A stretch of DNA of 24,000 nucleotides from positions 4,454 through 28,453 of the forward strand of contig CAYMBJ010000050.1 of assembly GCA_964388665.1 (NCBI GenBank). The letters run 5' to 3'. The translations under genes were made by a program, and so were the position numbers. The stretch comes from an uncultured Pseudobdellovibrionaceae bacterium (lineage in GTDB: Bacteria > Bdellovibrionota > Bdellovibrionia > Bdellovibrionales > Bdellovibrionaceae). Below, one piece after another: positions 5,596 to 23,463 of the stretch. The notes under the pieces were generated by a model that was not told the origin of the DNA, did not search any database, and was given only the letters and a program-made list of their open reading frames with translations. Numbering within the stretch: position 1 is the first letter of the stretch; each line of letters opens with the position of its first letter.

Positions 5596-7053
5596 ATGAC
5601 TTTAAATAACAATGCCCGCCGATTCTTTGTTTCCGTTTTTACTTTAGGAGTCGTTTTTGCGTCTTCGCCAGGACTCGCATTCTCGTTTACTAAAAAGACT
5701 GAAGGATGTCGCCCAGCTGCTAGCAGTGACGACAAGTTGACTACCGATGAAACAATCAATTGTTTTGCAAATGACAAGGTGAAGTTTGCAGTTAAAACTC
5801 CTGACGAAATTACCATAGATGACCTTTCTGCGGAAATGCTTGCAGAAGGACCCAATATGCATGGTTTAACAGACCAAGAGCTCAGCTCAAAAAAGGTTTA
5901 CTGCCGTTATAAGTATCACGAAAAGTCACAAAACAGCCCCAAATTTCGCTGTTTCCGCACTGATTCCAATGGGCGTTTTTTTAACAGCCAAAATGAAATT
6001 GTAACTGAAGCCGTTGAGGCCTTGGATGCTGATAAAAAAATCAATGGAGTCGAATACAAAGAGGGCACTCTTTTAGACATCTCCGGACAACCAATTGCGG
6101 TGGGTTCAGAAATTCAAAGAGGTGACGAAATCAAGGTCAAATACCTTTCTACAAAAGTCAAATCTACTTCAGGCAACAGTTTCGTTCTTGAAGAAGAAAT
6201 TGAAATGCCAAGATACCGCGAAGTTTTCACAGAAGTCGTTGGCACGCGGCTGATGTGGGCGCTTGGTTTTCCTGCTGACAATATCTACCCTGTTGAAAAG
6301 CTCATTTGCTTTGGCTGCAACAATCACCCATTCGAGCAGCTCAAGTCCACAATCAATATGGAAGAAGTACGAAAATCAGCCAATCCTTTTGGTGTAATTA
6401 TCAACTACAATGCCCAATTTACATCGCCAATTATCGAAAGACGATATGAACCAAAAAAAATCGGCGAGAGCTGGGACTTCGACGTCATAACTAAAGACAA
6501 TGTAGTAAAGAATTGGACAGCGGAACAGAAAAACGACTTTGAGGCCATGATCTTGGCAGTCAGCCTGATCAACTATTACAATCCCATTGCACAGCAGAAT
6601 CGTTTGCACTGCGAGAGCAAACCTAAAGACAACCAGTGCGACTATCCAATGGCCATGATTCAGGACGTAGGATCAACCTTGGGTGGCGACCATCCAGGCC
6701 TTTTCAATTCTGGAATTGCGATTCCAGGCCTTATGCAAAACCCTCGTGGAGAGCTCTCGGCCTTTGAGAATGGCAAGATCTTCGCAAATGCAGCCACCTG
6801 TCAACTTGGCCATGCCTTCGGCGAAGTTACCCACATTTCAAACTCAGGCATGTCATCCTTTTTGGCCAGACTCAATGCCGCAGACCTAACAGAAGAAAAG
6901 GTTCGCGCTATCTTTGAGGCTTCACGAATCGTGAATGCTGACCCAGAACTGAGAGACACTTTGGGTGCCAATGTGGTCTTGAACCGCTGGGTGCAAGCCT
7001 TTATGAATCACGTTCAAGAGGTCAAGAGTGCGGGATCTTGTTTGGAACACTAG
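5596..7053 (+). CDS. secreted Cys-containing protein, paralog 1 of a tandem pair; kinase-like motif layout with a degenerate catalytic-loop position
   Basis: 485-aa ORF with a strong RBS and signal peptide MTLNNNARRFFVSVFTLGVVFASSPGLAFS. It shares sequence blocks with the next gene: PKFRC, IKVKY, TRLMWALGFPADNIYPVEKLICFGC, AQQNRLHC, IQDVGSTLGG, AATC. Confidence 0.75.
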   Translation: MTLNNNARRFFVSVFTLGVVFASSPGLAFSFTKKTEGCRPAASSDDKLTTDETINCFANDKVKFAVKTPDEITIDDLSAEMLAEGPNMHGLTDQELSSKKVYCRYKYHEKSQNSPKFRCFRTDSNGRFFNSQNEIVTEAVEALDADKKINGVEYKEGTLLDISGQPIAVGSEIQRGDEIKVKYLSTKVKSTSGNSFVLEEEIEMPRYREVFTEVVGTRLMWALGFPADNIYPVEKLICFGCNNHPFEQLKSTINMEEVRKSANPFGVIINYNAQFTSPIIERRYEPKKIGESWDFDVITKDNVVKNWTAEQKNDFEAMILAVSLINYYNPIAQQNRLHCESKPKDNQCDYPMAMIQDVGSTLGGDHPGLFNSGIAIPGLMQNPRGELSAFENGKIFANAATCQLGHAFGEVTHISNSGMSSFLARLNAADLTEEKVRAIFEASRIVNADPELRDTLGANVVLNRWVQAFMNHVQEVKSAGSCLEH

Positions 7054-7153: not shown

Positions 7154-8653
7154 ATGAAAAGATCTTTAATTCTTACATCAATATTTGCCACTGCAAACCT
7201 AATTTCGACTGCAGCAAGTTCCGAAATTCTAATTAACACCTTGGACGAGAGAGCTGAACTTTTGAAACAAGCCGACGTTTGGGACCGTCCTGATTGGATC
7301 GAAAAGGACACTCACAAGTTTTTAGACTCTTACCAACTGTCTAAAAAAGGCGTTGATTCAGCAATACAGACCAATGGTGAATTTATTGAACTGGGTCCTG
7401 ATCGTGACTCTAGCATCGCTAAGGCTCTGAGCGAGGAAAACGTCGAATGCATCTATAACGACGAGCGAACGCAACGAAGCAAAAAGACCTCAGGATTCAC
7501 GCCTAAATTCTATTGCGATTTAAAATACACCAAAACCACAAATGATGGGATTGAAAATAAGACCAAAACTATCAAAATCAAGTATGACAACGGCGAAGCC
7601 TATTCAGAAATGGCTGCAACACGATTGATGTGGGCTCTGGGATTTAAAGCAGACAAAATGTATTCTGTTAAAAAACTGACTTGCCTTGGCTGCCCCGATG
7701 GTAATCCATGGAGGAATCAAGAGACTTACAGCTTGAGTAAATTTGGCGACAACCAAGTTGTTTTTGAAAATGTAGTGGCCGAACAAAAGTTTGACGCTGA
7801 AGAAATTGAGATGAATCCGGCTACCAATATCGCCTACAACGAATCAAAGGGATTTGACATGGGCACACTCTTTAATGGATTTTTGCGCCAAGATATTGAA
7901 CGCCTCCCTCGTGAAGATCAAGACATCGCCATTAAACGCAAAACACAGCGTGAAGCGCTTCGATTGCTTGCAGTGTTTTTGCAACATGGTGACAACAAGA
8001 GTGCTCAACAAAGACTTGCCTGTAAACTGAAAGATGGGAGCGAAGATAAATCAAGCATCACTATCGATGATTGCAAAGAGGGCAAACTCTACGCCTTAAT
8101 TCAAGACGTTGGCGCCACTTTTGGTATAGGATCTTGGACCATTCCTGAAAATCCAATCATGAACTTTTTTACCTCGATCCCCTCGAAAGTGATCCTTGAG
8201 TCAGCAAAAATGAATGCAGATGGCTGGAACCAATCTCCCTTCTGGAATGACGCAGCCACATGCCGTGCAAACTTGAATTCTGCCCACACAGAAAAGATGG
8301 ACGATCCGATCATTTCAGAGGAAGGTCGGCAGTTTTTGGCCACACTATTAAGTGGATTCATCGACGGCAGCAATGGCGAGGAACGACTGACAGCTTTGTT
8401 TACTAAGAGCCGCGCTGATATTCGCATGGCGAGAATTCGCTTAAACGCTGAACTCACCAGAGCATCCCAGGCCAAAGATTTACAAGAGTACTATAAGCTG
8501 ACTCGTGAATATGACCAAAATCTCAAAACACAAACTGCTATTGAACTCGCCAACTGGAAAAATATTTTCCGCCAAAAGGTGGCTGAATTGAAAAATCCAG
8601 TGCCAGAAAATCCAAACTTCTCATGCCCTACCAGCATTCTTGATGCTGAGTGA
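7154..8653 (+). CDS. secreted Cys-containing protein, paralog 2 of the tandem pair; putative PI3/4-kinase-like (type II PI4K-like) fold
   Basis: 499-aa ORF with signal peptide MKRSLILTSIFATANLISTAASS. Its motif order is reminiscent of atypical kinases: IKIKY (Lys strand), EAYSEMAATRLMWALGF (Glu helix), LLAVFLQHGDNKSAQQ (catalytic-loop-like), LIQDVGATFG (DFG-like). A predicted coiled/charged C-terminal tail follows. Confidence 0.75.
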   Translation: MKRSLILTSIFATANLISTAASSEILINTLDERAELLKQADVWDRPDWIEKDTHKFLDSYQLSKKGVDSAIQTNGEFIELGPDRDSSIAKALSEENVECIYNDERTQRSKKTSGFTPKFYCDLKYTKTTNDGIENKTKTIKIKYDNGEAYSEMAATRLMWALGFKADKMYSVKKLTCLGCPDGNPWRNQETYSLSKFGDNQVVFENVVAEQKFDAEEIEMNPATNIAYNESKGFDMGTLFNGFLRQDIERLPREDQDIAIKRKTQREALRLLAVFLQHGDNKSAQQRLACKLKDGSEDKSSITIDDCKEGKLYALIQDVGATFGIGSWTIPENPIMNFFTSIPSKVILESAKMNADGWNQSPFWNDAATCRANLNSAHTEKMDDPIISEEGRQFLATLLSGFIDGSNGEERLTALFTKSRADIRMARIRLNAELTRASQAKDLQEYYKLTREYDQNLKTQTAIELANWKNIFRQKVAELKNPVPENPNFSCPTSILDAE

Positions 8654-14087: not shown

Positions 14088-15373
14088 AGATTGATCCTCT
14101 TCACTAATTGTTTAAATGCCTTTTGATGACCTTGACCCGAGAAAATAGAGTCCAATTCGGTTTTCGAAAAGTGCTTGCTCAGCACGCTGTCTTTTAAAAT
14201 CAAATCGCGCATATGATCGCCGCGCCCGAGCGAATGCGCCACTCGCTGCACGTGCTTATAGGCCTCTTCACGCGAGAACCCCTGCTTTACCAAATGCAAC
14301 AGCAGATGTGAGCTAAAGAGCGTGCCCTGTGAGAGTTCCAGGTTTTCAAGCATCTTCTTTTTATTAACATGCAAGCCATCCAAAAGGTCGGCCATGCGGT
14401 GTAAAGCATAGTCTACCACAATAAAAGCATCTGGAAAGATCACCCTCTCAACTGAGGAGTGCGAGATGTCACGCTCGTGCCAGAGAGCAATGTTTTCTAG
14501 CGCCGACAAAAAATAGCCTCGCACCAAGCGCGCAAGCCCGGTGATATTTTCGGCGCTGATGGGATTTTTTTTATGAGGCATGGCCGAGCTGCCCTTTTGA
14601 CCAACCGTAAATCCTTCGACCACTTCACTCACTTCAGATCTCTGCAAATGCCGAAGCTCGACGGCCAAGCGCTCGAGCCCTGCCATCACAAAGCTCAGCG
14701 CACCGATCATTTCGGCATGCCGATCGCGAGGGATCACCTGTGTGGCAACACTCTCTGCCTGCAAACCTAAACGCTTGGCCACTTTTTTCTCTACTTCAGG
14801 AGGCTGACTCGAATAGGTGCCAACCGCACCTGAGAGTTTGCAAATTTTAAAATTATCGAGAGCGAGCTCCAAGCGCCGATGATTGCGTTTGAGCTCCATC
14901 AAGAATCCCGCCATCTTGATCCCGAAACTCGTTGGCTCAGCAAACATGCCGTGGGTTCGCCCTGGGCAAATGGTCGACTCGTGCTTTTTCACCAACTTTG
15001 ACAAGGATCGTTCCAACCGCTGGACCCCGGCCATCAGCAGGTCTGTGGCTTCCCAAACCTGCAAGCTAAAAGCTGTGTCTAGAACATCAGATGAGGTCAT
15101 ACCGAAATGAACAAACTTTCCGTGGGGCCCCACATTCTCTGCAACTGAAGACACAAAGGCAATCACATCATGCTTGGTGATCTTTTCAATCTCTTGAATT
15201 CTTTTTACAGAGAACTTGGCTTTGGCACGGATACTGCGCGCGGCCGCTTTGGGTATGATTCCAAGCTCTGCTTGCGCCAATGCGACTTGAGTTTCTACTT
15301 CTAGCATTTTGCCAAAGCGATGCTCTAAGTCCCAAAGGACTCCCATTTCAGCTCGGGTGTAACGTTCGATCAC
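14084..15373 (-). CDS. purB: adenylosuccinate lyase
   Basis: 429 aa with the fumarate-lyase signature GSSAMPHKKNP and the N-terminal ERYTRAEM typical of PurB. Confidence 0.95.
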   Translation of the reverse strand: MIERYTRAEMGVLWDLEHRFGKMLEVETQVALAQAELGIIPKAAARSIRAKAKFSVKRIQEIEKITKHDVIAFVSSVAENVGPHGKFVHFGMTSSDVLDTAFSLQVWEATDLLMAGVQRLERSLSKLVKKHESTICPGRTHGMFAEPTSFGIKMAGFLMELKRNHRRLELALDNFKICKLSGAVGTYSSQPPEVEKKVAKRLGLQAESVATQVIPRDRHAEMIGALSFVMAGLERLAVELRHLQRSEVSEVVEGFTVGQKGSSAMPHKKNPISAENITGLARLVRGYFLSALENIALWHERDISHSSVERVIFPDAFIVVDYALHRMADLLDGLHVNKKKMLENLELSQGTLFSSHLLLHLVKQGFSREEAYKHVQRVAHSLGRGDHMRDLILKDSVLSKHFSKTELDSIFSGQGHQKAFKQLVKRINL

Positions 15374-16688
15374 GATCTTTTTCCTTCCTCAACCGAATCC
15401 ATCCTGCCAATTCTTCCAAATCTTCATTCTGCACTTGCGCCATGTCTGACCAGGAGTAATAAGACCACTGCTCCGGCGAACTGCCGATGACCATTTTTGC
15501 CAGACGCGGCCGTCCCACCGAATCTTCGCGGTAAACCGGAAATCGTGGTGGCCCAATCTCTTTGTAAGTATGACGAAACTCACGCGGATAGTCTTTAAGT
15601 TGCACGAAATCCACTTTCCCCATCCTATGATTGATGGCCGCAGAGATCTTTTCGCCCAATGCTTTTAAGTAATCAGAGTTGAATCTTTGTACAAAGGGAG
15701 CTTTTGCCCAAATTGCCCAGGTGTGTTGGCTCATTGCTTTTTGCACGATCAGATAATTTTCTCGAGACCAAAACAAATCAGGATCGCCAATAAACACAAA
15801 ATGATCCGGAAATTTATTAAAGTACTCGACGTCTTTCAAAGTGAATTCGTATCGCAACCAGCAAGACTCTGGATCTCGCCCCGTTTGCCCATATAGGGTT
15901 TTGCCCGCCGACTGCGATAAAAAGTAAGTCTCTTCACTGGTGAGCATCCACACCGCGGCCAAAGACTTCGTGAGCCCCACCCACTCGCCCGTGGTTTCAA
16001 TGGCAAAAAAACTCTCGGGATGCGACTTCAAAGCGACGTCTTTAAAAACGCTGTGGCTAGAAACCTGTATGCCATCCTGTTTGAGCATCTCCAGAGCCTT
16101 GGCATAGTCAGAAAGATTAAACTGCCGAAAGGAAAAGCTCTGGCGAATACGTCGCTGTGATTTCTTGTCCCAATCAATCACCCTGCGAAAGCTCATTTCG
16201 CGAGTGCTCCCCCAAATTTCGTTAAAGTACTCAAGCCAGTACTTAGCAAAAAAAGCCGGCTCGGCATTCAAGCTCGTGGTCACGGGCCCGGAGGTGGAGG
16301 CGTGAGCAGACGCGGAGGCCTGCGCTCTTCGATCCGCTTTTCTCCGATTGAAGGGACCGCGTTTATTTTGAATGTCTGCAGTCGAGCGCTCCAGATAGAA
16401 GTTTGCCATGGGCCCCTTCATTTCGTAGGGACCATCTGCAAGCCAGGCACAAATTCCACCGCCCTGTTCAATGATCTGCCCATCCAACTCCAATCGAGAT
16501 TTCCATTCTGGATGAGATTCTAATCCGGCAATTCCAAAAGGACCTTCAAAATCTTCTGTGGACCAATTACCAAGATCATGAGTAAGATCCAAAAAACCGA
16601 CGCTGAGACCCAACTTTCGAGCCTGCAACGCCAAATGCTGACCTCTGCCAAAAGCACTTACAATAAAGAGATCAAAATCTGTTTTCAT
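15348..16688 (-). CDS. uncharacterised protein embedded in the pur operon; N-terminal degenerate Rossmann-like (dinucleotide-binding-like) beta-alpha-beta
   Basis: 446-aa ORF with no competing ORF. Its 3' end overlaps the purB start by 26 nt. The N-terminus DLFIVSAFGRGQHLALQARKLGLSVGFLD resembles a degenerate GxGxxG fold ending in an acidic residue. It has a low-complexity basic/Ala-Ser segment (RRKADRRAQASASAHASTSG). I recognise no purine-pathway enzyme motif. Confidence 0.7.
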   Translation of the reverse strand: MKTDFDLFIVSAFGRGQHLALQARKLGLSVGFLDLTHDLGNWSTEDFEGPFGIAGLESHPEWKSRLELDGQIIEQGGGICAWLADGPYEMKGPMANFYLERSTADIQNKRGPFNRRKADRRAQASASAHASTSGPVTTSLNAEPAFFAKYWLEYFNEIWGSTREMSFRRVIDWDKKSQRRIRQSFSFRQFNLSDYAKALEMLKQDGIQVSSHSVFKDVALKSHPESFFAIETTGEWVGLTKSLAAVWMLTSEETYFLSQSAGKTLYGQTGRDPESCWLRYEFTLKDVEYFNKFPDHFVFIGDPDLFWSRENYLIVQKAMSQHTWAIWAKAPFVQRFNSDYLKALGEKISAAINHRMGKVDFVQLKDYPREFRHTYKEIGPPRFPVYREDSVGRPRLAKMVIGSSPEQWSYYSWSDMAQVQNEDLEELAGWIRLRKEKDRDRTLHPS

Positions 16689-19431: not shown

Positions 19432-20826
19432 TTAAAAAACAAATCCAGCTTTGAACATAGTACTTTTCACTTCCAGATAAGAGTTATCAGTAACTTCTAT
19501 ATCATCCGATTCAACAACATCTTTTTGAATTGAGTGGCGGGTGATGTAGTGAGCAAGTTCCAAATTGAATTTCTGTTTAATGGTCACTCCCGCACCAAGC
19601 TGCAGACCAACTCCGGCACCAATCACCTTTTGTGATTGGTCAAGGTACTGAATATTGGGTCCACTCAAAAAATAGACTGCGTTCTGATTGCCAACATCCA
19701 GAGAAAAAGTTCCATTGCCCTCGCCTCTAAATAAAGTGTAGTCGGAAGTGTCTTTGTCGCGATTCGATTCCTTTGCGATGCTAAGGCCAGCTTGCCAGCC
19801 AAAGCCCTGCATGGGTACTCTTTCATACTGAGCATTGAGTGCTGTGTATTCCGGCGACCTATCTGATGAGCCCTTAATGGTTTGCAAGTTGCCAGTTGAC
19901 TTCCACTTCACGGTGACACTTAAATCCGTCTCTGCTTTGAAAAAACCGAGACCGATCGAAACACCTTTTTTTGCAAATGCACGAACGACATTGCGCGAGC
20001 TAGAAGATGAACTCCCGCCATCTTGAGCGGCATTTTGGAAATCAATACTTTTGATTCTTGCTTCCAATAGGTGCAGTAGATCCTCTCTTGTCATCTTTTT
20101 ATTTGCTGGCCATCTTTTGCCTTCACGCATTTTTGCTTCAAGATAGGCCAATTTGACCGGAATATTTTGGCCCAGATACCAGAGGAGATCATAAAAATCC
20201 CGCCCCTTAATTCGCTGCTTCCATTTGCGAAACAAGATTATATGCATTTTGCCGCTAAACAGATAAGAGGGTTTTAAAACTCTTATGGATGCTGTGATTG
20301 GTGGAAATAAAACTTTAACTTCTGTTTCAAATCCAAGCGGCGGCGTTATATCGACTTCAAATTTAATGCTCAGCTCTTTATTGTTTTGAATCTTTTCTGC
20401 AAACTTTTGTCCTGCCTCAATTCGCAAAAAATGCATTTTTGTATTTGCCTTTAGGAATGCGGATTCAACGTTAGTGGACTTGATTTTGTCGACCTCTTCG
20501 ATATCAACTTCGAGCCCAAATGATTCCAATGTGTTGGCAACGGCGCTAAAATATGTTTTCAAAGAGAAATCAGACTGTTTCGCCAGGAGTGTAAAGTCCA
20601 AATCTTCTGAAAATCTAGGGAGTCCATAGAAAATTCTTAAAGCCGTGCCGCCATAAAAGGCGGCTTTATCAAAAAACTTTCCGCGGGCTAGCCCCGCTAA
20701 CGTGATTTCTTGGATAATCTCTTTGAGTGCATTTTCGATTTCCAGAGGAGTCTTTGGTTGATATTTCGCGAGCAAGGAATCTATGGCTCCACTCAAGTTG
20801 ATTCTTCCTTTCGGTTGATGATCCAT
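19432..20826 (-). CDS. AbiEii-like nucleotidyltransferase toxin (type IV TA/abortive infection) fused to a C-terminal OMP-like beta-barrel domain
   Basis: Residues 1-269: FYGGTALRIFYGLPRFSEDLDFTL (NTase G[GS]...DxD motif) and KGRDFYDLLW, typical of AbiEii/DUF1814. Residues 270-277: GGSSSSSS linker (nt 19996-20019). Residues 278-464: amphipathic beta-strand periodicity ending in MFKAGFVF. Its start overlaps the AbiEi-like gene by 34 nt. Confidence 0.8.
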   Translation of the reverse strand: MDHQPKGRINLSGAIDSLLAKYQPKTPLEIENALKEIIQEITLAGLARGKFFDKAAFYGGTALRIFYGLPRFSEDLDFTLLAKQSDFSLKTYFSAVANTLESFGLEVDIEEVDKIKSTNVESAFLKANTKMHFLRIEAGQKFAEKIQNNKELSIKFEVDITPPLGFETEVKVLFPPITASIRVLKPSYLFSGKMHIILFRKWKQRIKGRDFYDLLWYLGQNIPVKLAYLEAKMREGKRWPANKKMTREDLLHLLEARIKSIDFQNAAQDGGSSSSSSRNVVRAFAKKGVSIGLGFFKAETDLSVTVKWKSTGNLQTIKGSSDRSPEYTALNAQYERVPMQGFGWQAGLSIAKESNRDKDTSDYTLFRGEGNGTFSLDVGNQNAVYFLSGPNIQYLDQSQKVIGAGVGLQLGAGVTIKQKFNLELAHYITRHSIQKDVVESDDIEVTDNSYLEVKSTMFKAGFVF

Positions 20827-21467
20827 TTAAGTATGCGATGTTCTTTTGAGTTCCGGTGATAGGAGGGACGAATCTCTTCTAAGTCTTTTACACTAATCAG
20901 ATCAAAAAATTGCGTCATCTCAAGACGGAGATCGTCTTCTAAAAACTCATGAATGTCCTTTTCGCTCTTGATGACCAAACTCTTGGTTTTGAGATTGATA
21001 TAATCAAGGAGCGCTTTTTCGGGTCTGGCGATAAAAAAACTGTCTCCGGCCTCATTGGTGCGAGAGAGGTACCCAATGGGATACCTGTTTTTGTTGATGT
21101 GACTGTATGAAAATGGCGCAAGCGGAGTTGTGAAAGTTTTCGAGCGCAATGTTGTCACAGAGGTCACTGTGGTGACTCGATCCATGATGAGTCCGTAATA
21201 TTGAAGAGCCCACTCCATCGAGACATAAGAGGGAAAATACAATGAGTTTGCAATCACATCATAGGGAGTGCTTTTCAGAAAGCTAGATTTTAGATTGAAG
21301 TATTGACCTCTCTTGATTGGCTGCAAATAGCCCTTGGCCTTAAGATCAAATATCTTTTTCTTTGGACTCTTGTAAGCGGATTGAGTCACATTGAAACCGC
21401 CACTGAGAAAGATGGCAACCAAAGGCTTCTTTCTTACTCTACATAATTGTAAATGGAAATCTTGCAA
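20793..21467 (-). CDS. AbiEi-like antitoxin/transcriptional regulator (type IV TA system)
   Basis: 224 aa. N-terminal wHTH-like ...DLKAKGYLQPIKRGQYF followed by PSYVSMEWALQYYGLI, the characteristic AbiEi pattern. It lies directly upstream of, and overlaps, the AbiEii-like gene. Confidence 0.75.
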   Translation of the reverse strand: MQDFHLQLCRVRKKPLVAIFLSGGFNVTQSAYKSPKKKIFDLKAKGYLQPIKRGQYFNLKSSFLKSTPYDVIANSLYFPSYVSMEWALQYYGLIMDRVTTVTSVTTLRSKTFTTPLAPFSYSHINKNRYPIGYLSRTNEAGDSFFIARPEKALLDYINLKTKSLVIKSEKDIHEFLEDDLRLEMTQFFDLISVKDLEEIRPSYHRNSKEHRILKWIINRKEEST

Positions 21468-23326
21468 CGACAGACACGAGCGAAGGATGCTATCTCTTCA
21501 CTACTTACAGGCGCCTTTCTCAGGCGCAAAGTCGCCCTCCCATCTCCATATTTGTCAGCAAAAGTCTCGCCGAGCCTTTCGCATGCACTGCAAATTGGCA
21601 TCAGATCAGACAAATCAAATCGACTCATGGGATTTCCCCGCAGATCAAGATCAAATTTCTTCCGGGAAACAATTTTTTCTGCCACTTCAGAGCTCAAATA
21701 GGGAATCTCTTCAATCAGATTGTCAGTCACATTCACTTTTTCACTTCCTATAAAGGCCAACTCCGCAAACTCTTCTGCGGAAAGCTCGGATATTCTGTTA
21801 TTGGCGAGATTCACAAAAAGCTCTTGCAAACGTACTGCCACCAAGTCCTGAATGCTCAATCGAGAGATCTGATTTTGGTCCAAATACAGATGCTTTAGAT
21901 TCGGCGCCAAAGCCAAACTGGGAAACTCCGAAATCTGATTTTGCCCAAGATCCAACAAAGACAATGAATTGAGCAGAGAAGGACTTAGTGCGCCGTGAAT
22001 CTGGTTGTTTCTTAAACCGATTGCTTCCAAATTAGGAGTCTTGTCAAAAAACTCTGGAAAGATATCGAGTCTATTCTCATTTGCCACAAACAGTCTCAAA
22101 AACTCCAAGACCTTACTCCCAGTGAATTTGATTTCTGTCAGGGCATTCCCAGCCACATCAAAAGCGCGAAGGTTGGGAGTTTGGTCAAACAGATCTCCCT
22201 GAAGACTCGCAATTCGATTGAAGGAAAAATCCAAATATTCCAGGCGCAGGAGCCCATAAAGGCTGTCTTTAAAAATATGATCAATGCGATTTCCAGAAAA
22301 GGTCATGACTGTGCGAGACTCAAAGGCCGTAAGATCCCCAGGGAGAAGCGTCGTAAGTCCAGCATTGACAAATGGACCTTCAATTTGACGGGCAGACTCA
22401 AGGTAGTGCTCAAGATAAAACCTCTCTATATCCTTCCAACTTGACGAAAAAAAGCCACTAAGAATGCTGCCCCTGGTCTCAAGTCTCCCGCCCTGCATGC
22501 CGGCCGCAAGATCACCCTCTGTCAGCAATTCACAGGGGGCCTTTAGCGCCAATACAATGGACTCTTGAATTCCAGGAGTTCGCTGACAGACAGGTACGAA
22601 CTTTCGCGGATGCAAACTGAGTCCCAAATTCTTGAGTGAGTTCTGAAAATCCACCTTGGATAGGGTCTCTGCTTGTGCCGAATGGAGAAAGCGATTGATC
22701 CGTCGCAAGGCCTCGGGGTCTTCGACAAAATCCCAAAGCCATTCATGGACAATCAAAAATGAGTATTGCAATGGCCTATAACGCAGTTGCCTCAACACTT
22801 CAGGATCGTAATTGTAGATGGTCGCGGACTCATTTTTTTGGCGAATGACCGCCTGAAGGACCTCAAGATGATTCTTTTCAGCTCCCTTTTTGTAACAATT
22901 GGGCGGCAGTTTTCGAATGGCCTGCTCATCTTCGAGGTCTACGAGCCCATAAATGGCCTCAAGCCAAAGGCGTTCCTGCAAATAAATCTGCTCAGGTGGA
23001 ACTGCATCTTCTCCTGGAATTCTGGCCAAAAAGTCCCTAAAAAAGCGCTCAAGATCAGGATATTTTTGCTCAAAGAGCCCCAAAAGACGCTCCCTTTGGT
23101 CCCCCCAGGTGGCCAACTCTTGAAGATCTGAGTTATCTTCTCGAAGGGTCATTAGGTAATCAAAGGAGTAGTACCCCGCATAGCTAGAATTGTCCGAGAC
23201 TTCGCAGCGCACGGCATCTCCACCATTCCCAACGGTGACTCCCGCAATTGCTGACTTACAGTGCAGCACAGACAAAAATAGCAGCGTCCAAATTTTAAAA
23301 ATCCCAATCTGATTCGATATTTTCAT
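21434..23326 (-). CDS. secreted leucine-rich-repeat protein with an unassigned N-terminal domain and a Cys-containing C-terminal tail
   Basis: Signal peptide MKISNQIGIFKIWTLLFLSVLHCKSAIAG from the ATG at 23326; the ORF-track start at 23404 adds 26 non-signal residues. There are about 9-10 LRRs (LxxLxLxxNxI type: LEYLDFSFNRIASL, LRAFDVAGNALTEI, LEAIGLRNNQIHG, LSLLDLGQNQISEF, LKHLYLDQNQISRL, LFVNLANNRISEL ...) at nt ~21620-22372. The stop overlaps the AbiEi-like start by 34 nt. Confidence 0.8.
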   Translation of the reverse strand: MKISNQIGIFKIWTLLFLSVLHCKSAIAGVTVGNGGDAVRCEVSDNSSYAGYYSFDYLMTLREDNSDLQELATWGDQRERLLGLFEQKYPDLERFFRDFLARIPGEDAVPPEQIYLQERLWLEAIYGLVDLEDEQAIRKLPPNCYKKGAEKNHLEVLQAVIRQKNESATIYNYDPEVLRQLRYRPLQYSFLIVHEWLWDFVEDPEALRRINRFLHSAQAETLSKVDFQNSLKNLGLSLHPRKFVPVCQRTPGIQESIVLALKAPCELLTEGDLAAGMQGGRLETRGSILSGFFSSSWKDIERFYLEHYLESARQIEGPFVNAGLTTLLPGDLTAFESRTVMTFSGNRIDHIFKDSLYGLLRLEYLDFSFNRIASLQGDLFDQTPNLRAFDVAGNALTEIKFTGSKVLEFLRLFVANENRLDIFPEFFDKTPNLEAIGLRNNQIHGALSPSLLNSLSLLDLGQNQISEFPSLALAPNLKHLYLDQNQISRLSIQDLVAVRLQELFVNLANNRISELSAEEFAELAFIGSEKVNVTDNLIEEIPYLSSEVAEKIVSRKKFDLDLRGNPMSRFDLSDLMPICSACERLGETFADKYGDGRATLRLRKAPVSSEEIASFARVCRCKISIYNYVE

Positions 23327-23463
23327 GATTTTAACAGAAACCCTTTTCTCCCATGCAAGACGACATGGAGAGCATCGAATAGGCTCCCGCTGCGGCTCTG
23401 TCAAGTTGGCAGATTTTCGTGATTATTTTCTGTTTTCTATGAGCGAACAGAGATAGATCCTGA

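Follow-up and report, generated by a model that had tools for sequence, protein, structure and literature searches.

An AbiE system is a type IV toxin–antitoxin (TA) and abortive infection module in which an antitoxin, AbiEi, is paired with AbiEii, a GTP-binding nucleotidyltransferase (NTase) of the DUF1814 type (Dy et al. 2014, PMC3985639). In that study, motifs I–IV of AbiEii are reported as required for both GTP binding and toxicity, and the C-terminal domain of AbiEi as sufficient for neutralization of the toxin. The same domain is reported to contact AbiEii (bioRxiv 10.64898/2026.01.19.700257). Here we analyze an AbiE locus in a 24,000-nucleotide (nt) stretch of contig CAYMBJ010000050.1, from an uncultured Pseudobdellovibrionaceae bacterium (the whole stretch is hereafter called the window), in which the reading frame of the toxin continues into a predicted small outer membrane protein (OMP) of the β-barrel type.

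With AbiE and its MenA/MenT relatives the locus shares a bicistronic, overlapping abiEi-abiEii pair, strong profile matches, the NTase motifs, and the C-terminal domain of AbiEi. Unlike them, its AbiEii has lost the last 29 residues and gained a foreign tail of 195 amino acids (aa), its AbiEi has lost the first ~29 residues of the winged-helix domain (reported as required for autoregulation), and the promoter/operator of the operon, conserved in relatives, is missing. The foreign tail resembles members of the OMP_b-brl clan (OmpW/OprG, OmpX/Ail, NspA, and the transmembrane domain of OmpA) in its predicted all-β barrel and C-terminal aromatic residue, but it has no signal peptide and is joined to a cytoplasmic enzyme. 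The locus can also be compared with chimeras that arise by read-through from mobile DNA: it consists of a cassette type found in many contexts, which is truncated at both ends, apparently embedded in a host gene, and present in this form on a single contig. It differs from such chimeras in that no transposase, integrase, tRNA, inverted repeats, or target-site duplication was found nearby, and in that both junctions are in frame. We propose, with a probability of roughly 0.6, that a promoter-less internal fragment of an AbiE operon interrupts an OMP gene, separating the gene's leader from its mature barrel, and that the fusion would be a by-product of the fragment's arrival there.

An AbiEii toxin without its conserved C-terminus

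The chimeric open reading frame (ORF; Table 1) starts with ATG and runs for 464 codons without an internal stop; gene callers started it internally, resulting in a protein of 454 aa (P0001). The initial annotation of this DNA described an AbiEii NTase followed, in a single frame, by an OMP-type barrel and lacking a signal peptide. Pfam and PADLOC for the NTase, and AlphaFold2 and Foldseek for the barrel, agree with this description, and the N-terminus of the chimeric protein shows no hydrophobic signal-like stretch. Homology of the first half to AbiEii is evident on profile search: residues 43–269 match Pfam PF08843 (E = 3.3e-30; 106 bits, with a cut-off of 22.5), and the PADLOC profile PDLC02293 is matched with E = 7.7e-92. 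We aligned the window AbiEii with 13 stand-alone AbiEii proteins. The NTase motif residues are kept and occupy invariant columns of this alignment: G59, G60, D75, and D77 (GG…DLD, motif I), and K207, G208, R209, D210, Y212, and D213 (KGRDxYD, motif IV). The two stretches that had been singled out as AbiEii hallmarks, FYGGTALRIFYGLPRFSEDLDF and KGRDFYDLLW, are present and fall on columns invariant across close homologs.

The same annotation placed the end of the NTase domain near the natural C-terminus of AbiEii; in fact, the domain is without its conserved final 29 residues. The closest stand-alone AbiEii proteins are 75–77% identical to the window protein, and the homology stops exactly at residue 269 (…NAAQD, nt 20020), where all aligned homologs go on with the conserved tail VAAFIKDPxEVxxWxQEMFLAAVKxIKTE. 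We sought this tail in every frame of the window and did not find it. The truncation is also apparent in the coverage of PDLC02293, which is matched over positions 2–241 of 270 by the window protein and over positions 2–269 by the intact homologs P0004 and P0002. Up to the point of truncation the sequence is well preserved, with two lineage-specific changes at otherwise invariant sites, as compared with zero to four in close homologs and 11 in the divergent P0079. A PDB sequence search with an intact AbiEii homolog returned no relevant structure.

Another AbiEii homolog, P0056 (348 aa), departs from the family beyond residue ~236, where ~110 unrelated residues follow. It has the look of a frameshift product or of another chimeric end that arose independently, and would suggest that one-off replacements of the C-terminus recur among AbiEii proteins.

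The barrel half begins at a mature N-terminus

The last 195 aa of the chimera (residues 270–464) are confidently predicted to form a small outer membrane β-barrel. The AlphaFold2 model of this half, built from an alignment of 16 relatives, is all-β, with a mean predicted local distance difference test (pLDDT) score of 89.8 and a predicted template modeling (TM) score of 0.82. The best PDB folds reported by Foldseek are OmpW, OprG, Ail, NspA, OmpA, and OmpX, with a probability of 1.00. Fold similarity to these proteins of the OMP_b-brl clan is moderate (TM 0.39–0.54), the Pfam scores of the window barrel are below threshold, and even its closest sequence relative is only 36% identical. The initial annotation had considered the outcome that this half would match no OMP hidden Markov model (HMM). 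This applies to the window barrel itself, which matches only DUF7840 in Pfam, with 21 bits and a cut-off of 27; it does not apply to its family, 10 of whose 17 members match PF13505 OMP_b-brl (best E = 1.6e-10), and the fold search is unambiguous. The protein ends in …KAGFVF, with a terminal F that is invariant in the family, in agreement with the terminal Phe first described.

Relatives of the barrel were not detected by a word-indexed protein search, and the family emerged only by exhaustive HMMER comparison against 1.84 billion representatives, which gave 33 matches. The best of them are P0121 (247 aa, 36% identity, E = 4e-26) and P0122 (230 aa). All informative relatives are stand-alone proteins of ~220–330 aa, with a signal peptide (…AFAQ) at the N-terminus and the homologous region at the C-terminus. 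A low-complexity linker, rich in Ser, Glu, and Pro in the longer members, frequently follows the signal peptide, and each relative ends in aromatic-x-Phe (Y-x-F). Neither AbiEii nor any other cytoplasmic domain was found in these relatives. The window barrel retains every residue that is invariant in the family.

The position of the junction (20019/20020) with respect to this family is informative. The segment GGSSSSSS, which immediately follows the AbiEii homology and draws on a variety of codons (ggc ggg agt tca tct tct agc tcg), had been interpreted as a linker between two domains. However, the HMMER alignment with P0121 extends to residue 1 of the extension, with GGSSSSSSRNVVRAFAKKGVSIGL opposite GDSSASESPPPPQVFASKGFSLGL, and here GGSSSSSS is aligned to GDSSASES, which directly follows the signal peptide of P0121. 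Moreover, a family HMM built from 15 members, with the window protein excluded, matches the window barrel with 136.6 bits over HMM positions 31–225, leaving uncovered positions 1–30, which correspond to the signal peptide; in the chimera, 269 aa of AbiEii come before the barrel. Given the P0121 alignment and the HMM coverage, we conclude that GGSSSSSS did not evolve as a linker but is what the mature barrel protein natively begins with, and that AbiEii stands in the place of the signal peptide.

A structure prediction of the full-length protein, as the initial annotation had advised, is again confident for the barrel (pLDDT 87–98). The residues around the junction (264–281) are disordered, with pLDDT < 50, and no confidence is assigned to the arrangement of the two domains. 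The NTase half is predicted with low confidence owing to a shallow alignment, and this model therefore says nothing on the effect of the truncation. At the DNA level, positions 19996–20026 on the minus strand (GGCGGGAGTTCATCTTCTAGCTCGCGC), just past the junction, match ~15 of 26 nt at about positions 6808–6835 of L002, a locus that carries an intact AbiE cassette, with a one-base shift. This could be microhomology used in recombination, or chance.

The antitoxin is truncated at the opposite end of the module

The abiEi gene overlaps the start of the toxin by 34 nt, like in intact cassettes, and its product matches PADLOC PDLC02230 (E = 1.8e-49) and NCBIfam TAA_AbiEi. The product on record corresponds to the start chosen by gene callers (Table 1), and the open frame runs on upstream to a TTG at 21467 (ORF 20793–21467). 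We compared it with the AbiEi proteins of six intact cassettes of relatives (L002, L010, L012, L021, L022, and L023). The N-termini of these six homologs, over the first ~30 residues, are conserved, with 17–26 of 31 positions identical in pairwise comparisons. The window AbiEi is 66–70% identical to them from the motif YKSPKKK on; before that, only three to eight of 24 positions are identical. AbiE homology thus begins at nt ~21380, and the first ~29 residues of AbiEi are replaced by unrelated sequence. Consistently, PDLC02230 is covered over positions 14–182 of 192 in the window and over positions 3–182 in homologs. The C-terminal domain is kept, and the remaining part of AbiEi carries nine lineage-specific changes at otherwise invariant sites, as compared with two to 12 in homologs. 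The missing N-terminus is not in any other frame. We also considered that the chimera might be two genes, or the result of a simple frameshift at the junction, and rejected this, since neither the AbiEii tail nor the AbiEi N-terminus is hidden in another frame.

Upstream regulatory sequence has been lost together with the N-terminus. A promoter-like region, TTGCAC…TATATT, is conserved upstream in three relatives (L002, L010, and L012); it is absent upstream of the window abiEi, where the 3' end of a leucine-rich-repeat (LRR) gene is found instead. On the minus strand, we found neither a sigma-70-like site nor any convincing promoter or terminator.

In place of the AbiEi N-terminus stands MQDFHLQLCRVRKKPLVAIFLSGGFNVTQ, which is in frame with AbiEi and shares part of its DNA with the 3' end of the LRR gene. 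Its arrangement, …RVRKK-PLVAIFLSGGF-NVTQ, comprises a basic n-region (RVRKK) and a hydrophobic core (LVAIFL). In a simple pattern test, this type of leader was found at four independent sites, including the leader itself, among the 47,996 six-frame positions of the window. The leader shows no similarity to AbiEi N-termini or to the promoter conserved in relatives. We propose that it may be the signal-peptide-like 5' remnant of an interrupted OMP gene.

Rarity of the fusion

We searched with the whole protein against 5.8 billion protein clusters and recovered 7,940 AbiEii homologs. The best 120 of these are 265–348 aa long, cover 51–61% of the query, and carry PF08843 only; the sole full-length match is P0001, the protein of the window contig itself, which is alone in its cluster. 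A shared two-domain architecture, which the initial annotation had suggested looking for in relatives, was found neither in these 120 AbiEii proteins nor in the informative barrel relatives, all of which are stand-alone. The statement that no AbiE toxin with a barrel has been described agrees with our own results, as we found no description of an AbiEii–barrel fusion in the literature searched. Within the reach of these sequence searches, the fusion is a singleton and not a conserved new kind of toxin. Its parts are ordinary members of the AbiE and OMP_b-brl groups; their combination, undescribed in that literature, is unconserved and carries the traits of an accident.

Genomic neighborhood and mobility of the module

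Table 1. Features of the chimeric AbiE locus and of its flanking genes (positions in the window)
Feature	Coordinates	Strand	Basis
Convergent neighbor OMP259, OMP-like, 259/249 aa	18532..19311	+	Conserved beside purM in related Bdellovibrionota
Chimeric ORF, 464 aa (AbiEii without C-terminus plus mature OMP barrel)	19432..20826	-	ORF analysis
Predicted small outer membrane β-barrel, mature part only, ending in GFVF (C-terminal aromatic signal)	19435..19995	-	AlphaFold2, Foldseek, family HMM
GGSSSSSS, low-complexity N-terminus of mature barrel protein	19996..20019	-	HMMER alignment to P0121
AbiEii nucleotidyltransferase part, residues 1-269	20020..20826	-	PF08843, PADLOC, alignment to stand-alone homologs
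AbiEi antitoxin without conserved N-terminus, 198 aa from GTG 21389	20793..21389	-	PADLOC PDLC02230, homolog alignment
Leader, in frame with AbiEi	21381..21467	-	Read from sequence
Upstream gene, secreted LRR protein, 656 aa by longest ORF	21434..23404	-	Pfam LRR_8, LRR_4

Intact AbiE cassettes of close relatives occur in six different genomic contexts. Because these contexts are unrelated to each other, we consider the module mobile. The left part of the window is a conserved purine-biosynthesis cluster, and relatives sharing purN-purM-OMP259 diverge right after OMP259, the two closest of seven (L003 and L004) being non-syntenic beyond this gene. In all seven, homologs of AbiE, of the barrel, and of the LRR protein are absent up to 10 kb from OMP259. 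The loss of synteny past OMP259, along with the absence of these homologs, indicates that the fusion lies in a variable chromosomal spot. GC content and GC content at third codon positions (GC3) shift only mildly across the junctions.

The LRR gene stops 51 nt ahead of the start of AbiE homology. The N-terminal ~330 aa of its product show no family match and are followed by leucine-rich repeats. A metagenome scan with this protein gave only distant relatives, with 29–34% identity, over the N-terminal domain only.

On the other side, OMP259 (~250 aa) has no Pfam or NCBIfam match. Its acidic N-terminal motif, DPDEAYDPFADYSEFDEASDEEADIYFFKNGRF, is strikingly conserved, and its C-terminus is …LGLNF. 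Orthologs adjoin purM in at least seven metagenome-assembled genomes (MAGs) of Bdellovibrionota, with 42–70% identity (e.g., L003 8159–8890 and L004 9911–10666), and OMP259 may represent an undescribed OMP family. We tested the fused barrel as a paralog of OMP259, and rejected this relationship (E = 0.28).

A small OMP gene is also present beside one intact cassette: L012 carries, at 6014–6637, a complete 207-aa OMP_b-brl_2 gene, 117 nt downstream of abiEi-abiEii and on the same strand. Small OMP genes are frequent neighbors in related genomes, which makes a chance juxtaposition plausible. Its protein is unrelated to the window barrel, and we rejected this arrangement as the ancestral one.

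Further genes of the window lack a family assignment. An ORF of 446 aa without a Pfam match (15348–16688, minus strand) lies immediately downstream of purN; ORFs of 455 and 419 aa occupy the same position in L003 (4899–6266) and L004 (6290–7549), their likeness to the 446-aa ORF being judged by eye. Two ORFs that lie side by side, 485 and 499 aa long (5596–7053 and 7154–8653, plus strand), also without a Pfam match, have a GC3 of 0.43–0.45, lower than that of the neighboring purine genes (0.53–0.60).

Discussion

In the best reading of these sequences, the 464-aa fusion would not be an evolved two-domain effector but the by-product of an event. A fragment of ~1,361 nt (nt ~20020–21380) from a mobile AbiE (AbiEi-AbiEii) type IV TA operon, without promoter and short of each end by about 29 codons, would have inserted in, or replaced part of, a chromosomal gene for a small secreted OMP by illegitimate recombination. 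The insertion point would fall between the signal-peptide-like leader and the codons of the mature protein, so that the uninterrupted OMP gene would read …RVRKKPLVAIFLSGGFNVTQ-GGSSSSSSRNVVRAF…. The frame of the leader would then continue into the antitoxin remnant, and the toxin remnant would read into the mature barrel down to the barrel gene's own stop. Both junctions would be in frame by chance; selection possibly helped in retaining the frame, as the antitoxin remnant needs a translation start. Of three readings offered by the initial annotation, this one corresponds to the third, a scar left where an OMP gene captured a TA module in frame. The other two, a second effector and a localization device, fit poorly with a singleton in which both ends of the module are truncated and the barrel begins at its mature N-terminus.

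Several observations weigh against this origin. A random event would leave both junctions in frame only about one time in nine, and we found no repeats or target-site duplication at the junctions. Adding the leader to the barrel gives no gain in the family HMM score, a test that is uninformative because signal peptides lack sequence conservation. Neither remnant shows decay (two changes in AbiEii, nine in AbiEi), nor does the barrel, which fits a very recent event and equally continued selection on the parts. Finally, an uninterrupted OMP gene with the leader, i.e., an ortholog of the empty site, was absent from the databases searched, and the seven OMP259 loci gave none; for this reason, we infer, rather than observe, the insertion into an OMP gene and the direction of the event.

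Among the alternatives, the one that survives best is that the fusion exists in no cell, the assembler or the binning having joined an AbiE fragment to unrelated flanks. The architecture is indeed found on one contig only, evidently of MAG type (28,454 bp). Metagenomes of Bdellovibrionota commonly contain related AbiE cassettes, and an exact-sequence look-up recovered no independent copy of the contig. Yet we consider a misassembly unlikely, because a de Bruijn error would require, at both junctions of unrelated sequence, a k-mer common to the two sides: the flanks have no AbiE homology and the junctions no repeats. Moreover, long reading frames are preserved across both junctions, where the compositional change noted above is only mild, and NCBI and Logan both appear as sources of the proteins, although these entries possibly derive from the same assembly.

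We find it harder still to credit a simple deletion, in which a complete abiEi-abiEii operon was closely followed, on the same strand, by a complete barrel gene downstream, and a single event took the 3' end of the toxin, the spacer, and the codons of the signal peptide. A single in-frame deletion has a chance of about one in three, and L012 does have a small OMP gene directly downstream of abiEii in the same orientation. That gene, however, encodes an OMP_b-brl_2 protein unrelated to the window barrel, and a single deletion leaves unexplained the loss of the AbiEi N-terminus and of the promoter, as well as the signal-peptide-like leader, at the other end of the module.

A functional two-domain abortive infection effector, with the barrel recruited to permeabilize the membrane or to sequester or localize the NTase, appears improbable. 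The lack of decay in two intact halves, the preserved catalytic motifs, the preserved translational coupling with the antitoxin (34-nt overlap), and the absence of the fusion from the literature searched would all be compatible with it. Against it, thousands of homologs yield this architecture only once, a conserved element is missing from the C-terminus of the toxin, and at the opposite end of the module both antitoxin and promoter are damaged. The barrel itself is an ordinary member of a secreted family that depends on Sec and the β-barrel assembly machinery (BAM), minus the signal peptide. The point of fusion matches the boundary of that peptide, as an accident would predict, and AlphaFold places no confidence in the inter-domain arrangement, with residues 264–281 disordered. 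That the protein is a working toxin whose signal-less OMP-type barrel, once activation has released or unmasked it, injures the inner membrane or keeps the NTase inactive in an aggregated or membrane-bound form strikes us as very improbable; if true, such a barrel-toxin would be a new AbiE effector architecture, caught at birth in a single lineage.

If an AbiE fragment did land in an OMP gene, as we favor, several consequences can be anticipated. Since the signal peptide is missing, the barrel half would be unable to reach the outer membrane: with no route through Sec and BAM, it would form no outer membrane barrel and would most likely remain unfolded, and the OMP gene would have been inactivated. 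The NTase half would be either inactive, possibly because a conserved C-terminal element is missing, or a toxin whose added tail is inert and probably unfolded; any toxicity left would be restrained by the C-terminal domain that AbiEi retains. As the promoter/operator of the module is gone, expression must be driven by upstream host transcription. The AbiEi and AbiEii remnants may therefore persist as a weak TA pair under host transcription, or be inert.

The locus shows that an eye-catching fusion on a metagenome-assembled contig calls for a check of conservation and of intact domain boundaries before a function is proposed. On the reading favored here, it would be a clean natural example of a fragment of a mobile defense cassette that came to lie within a host gene while preserving the frame at both junctions. 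Its AbiEii without the last 29 residues provides a ready-made construct to address the role of this tail in toxicity, and in-frame landing events of this kind would be raw material for new domain combinations.

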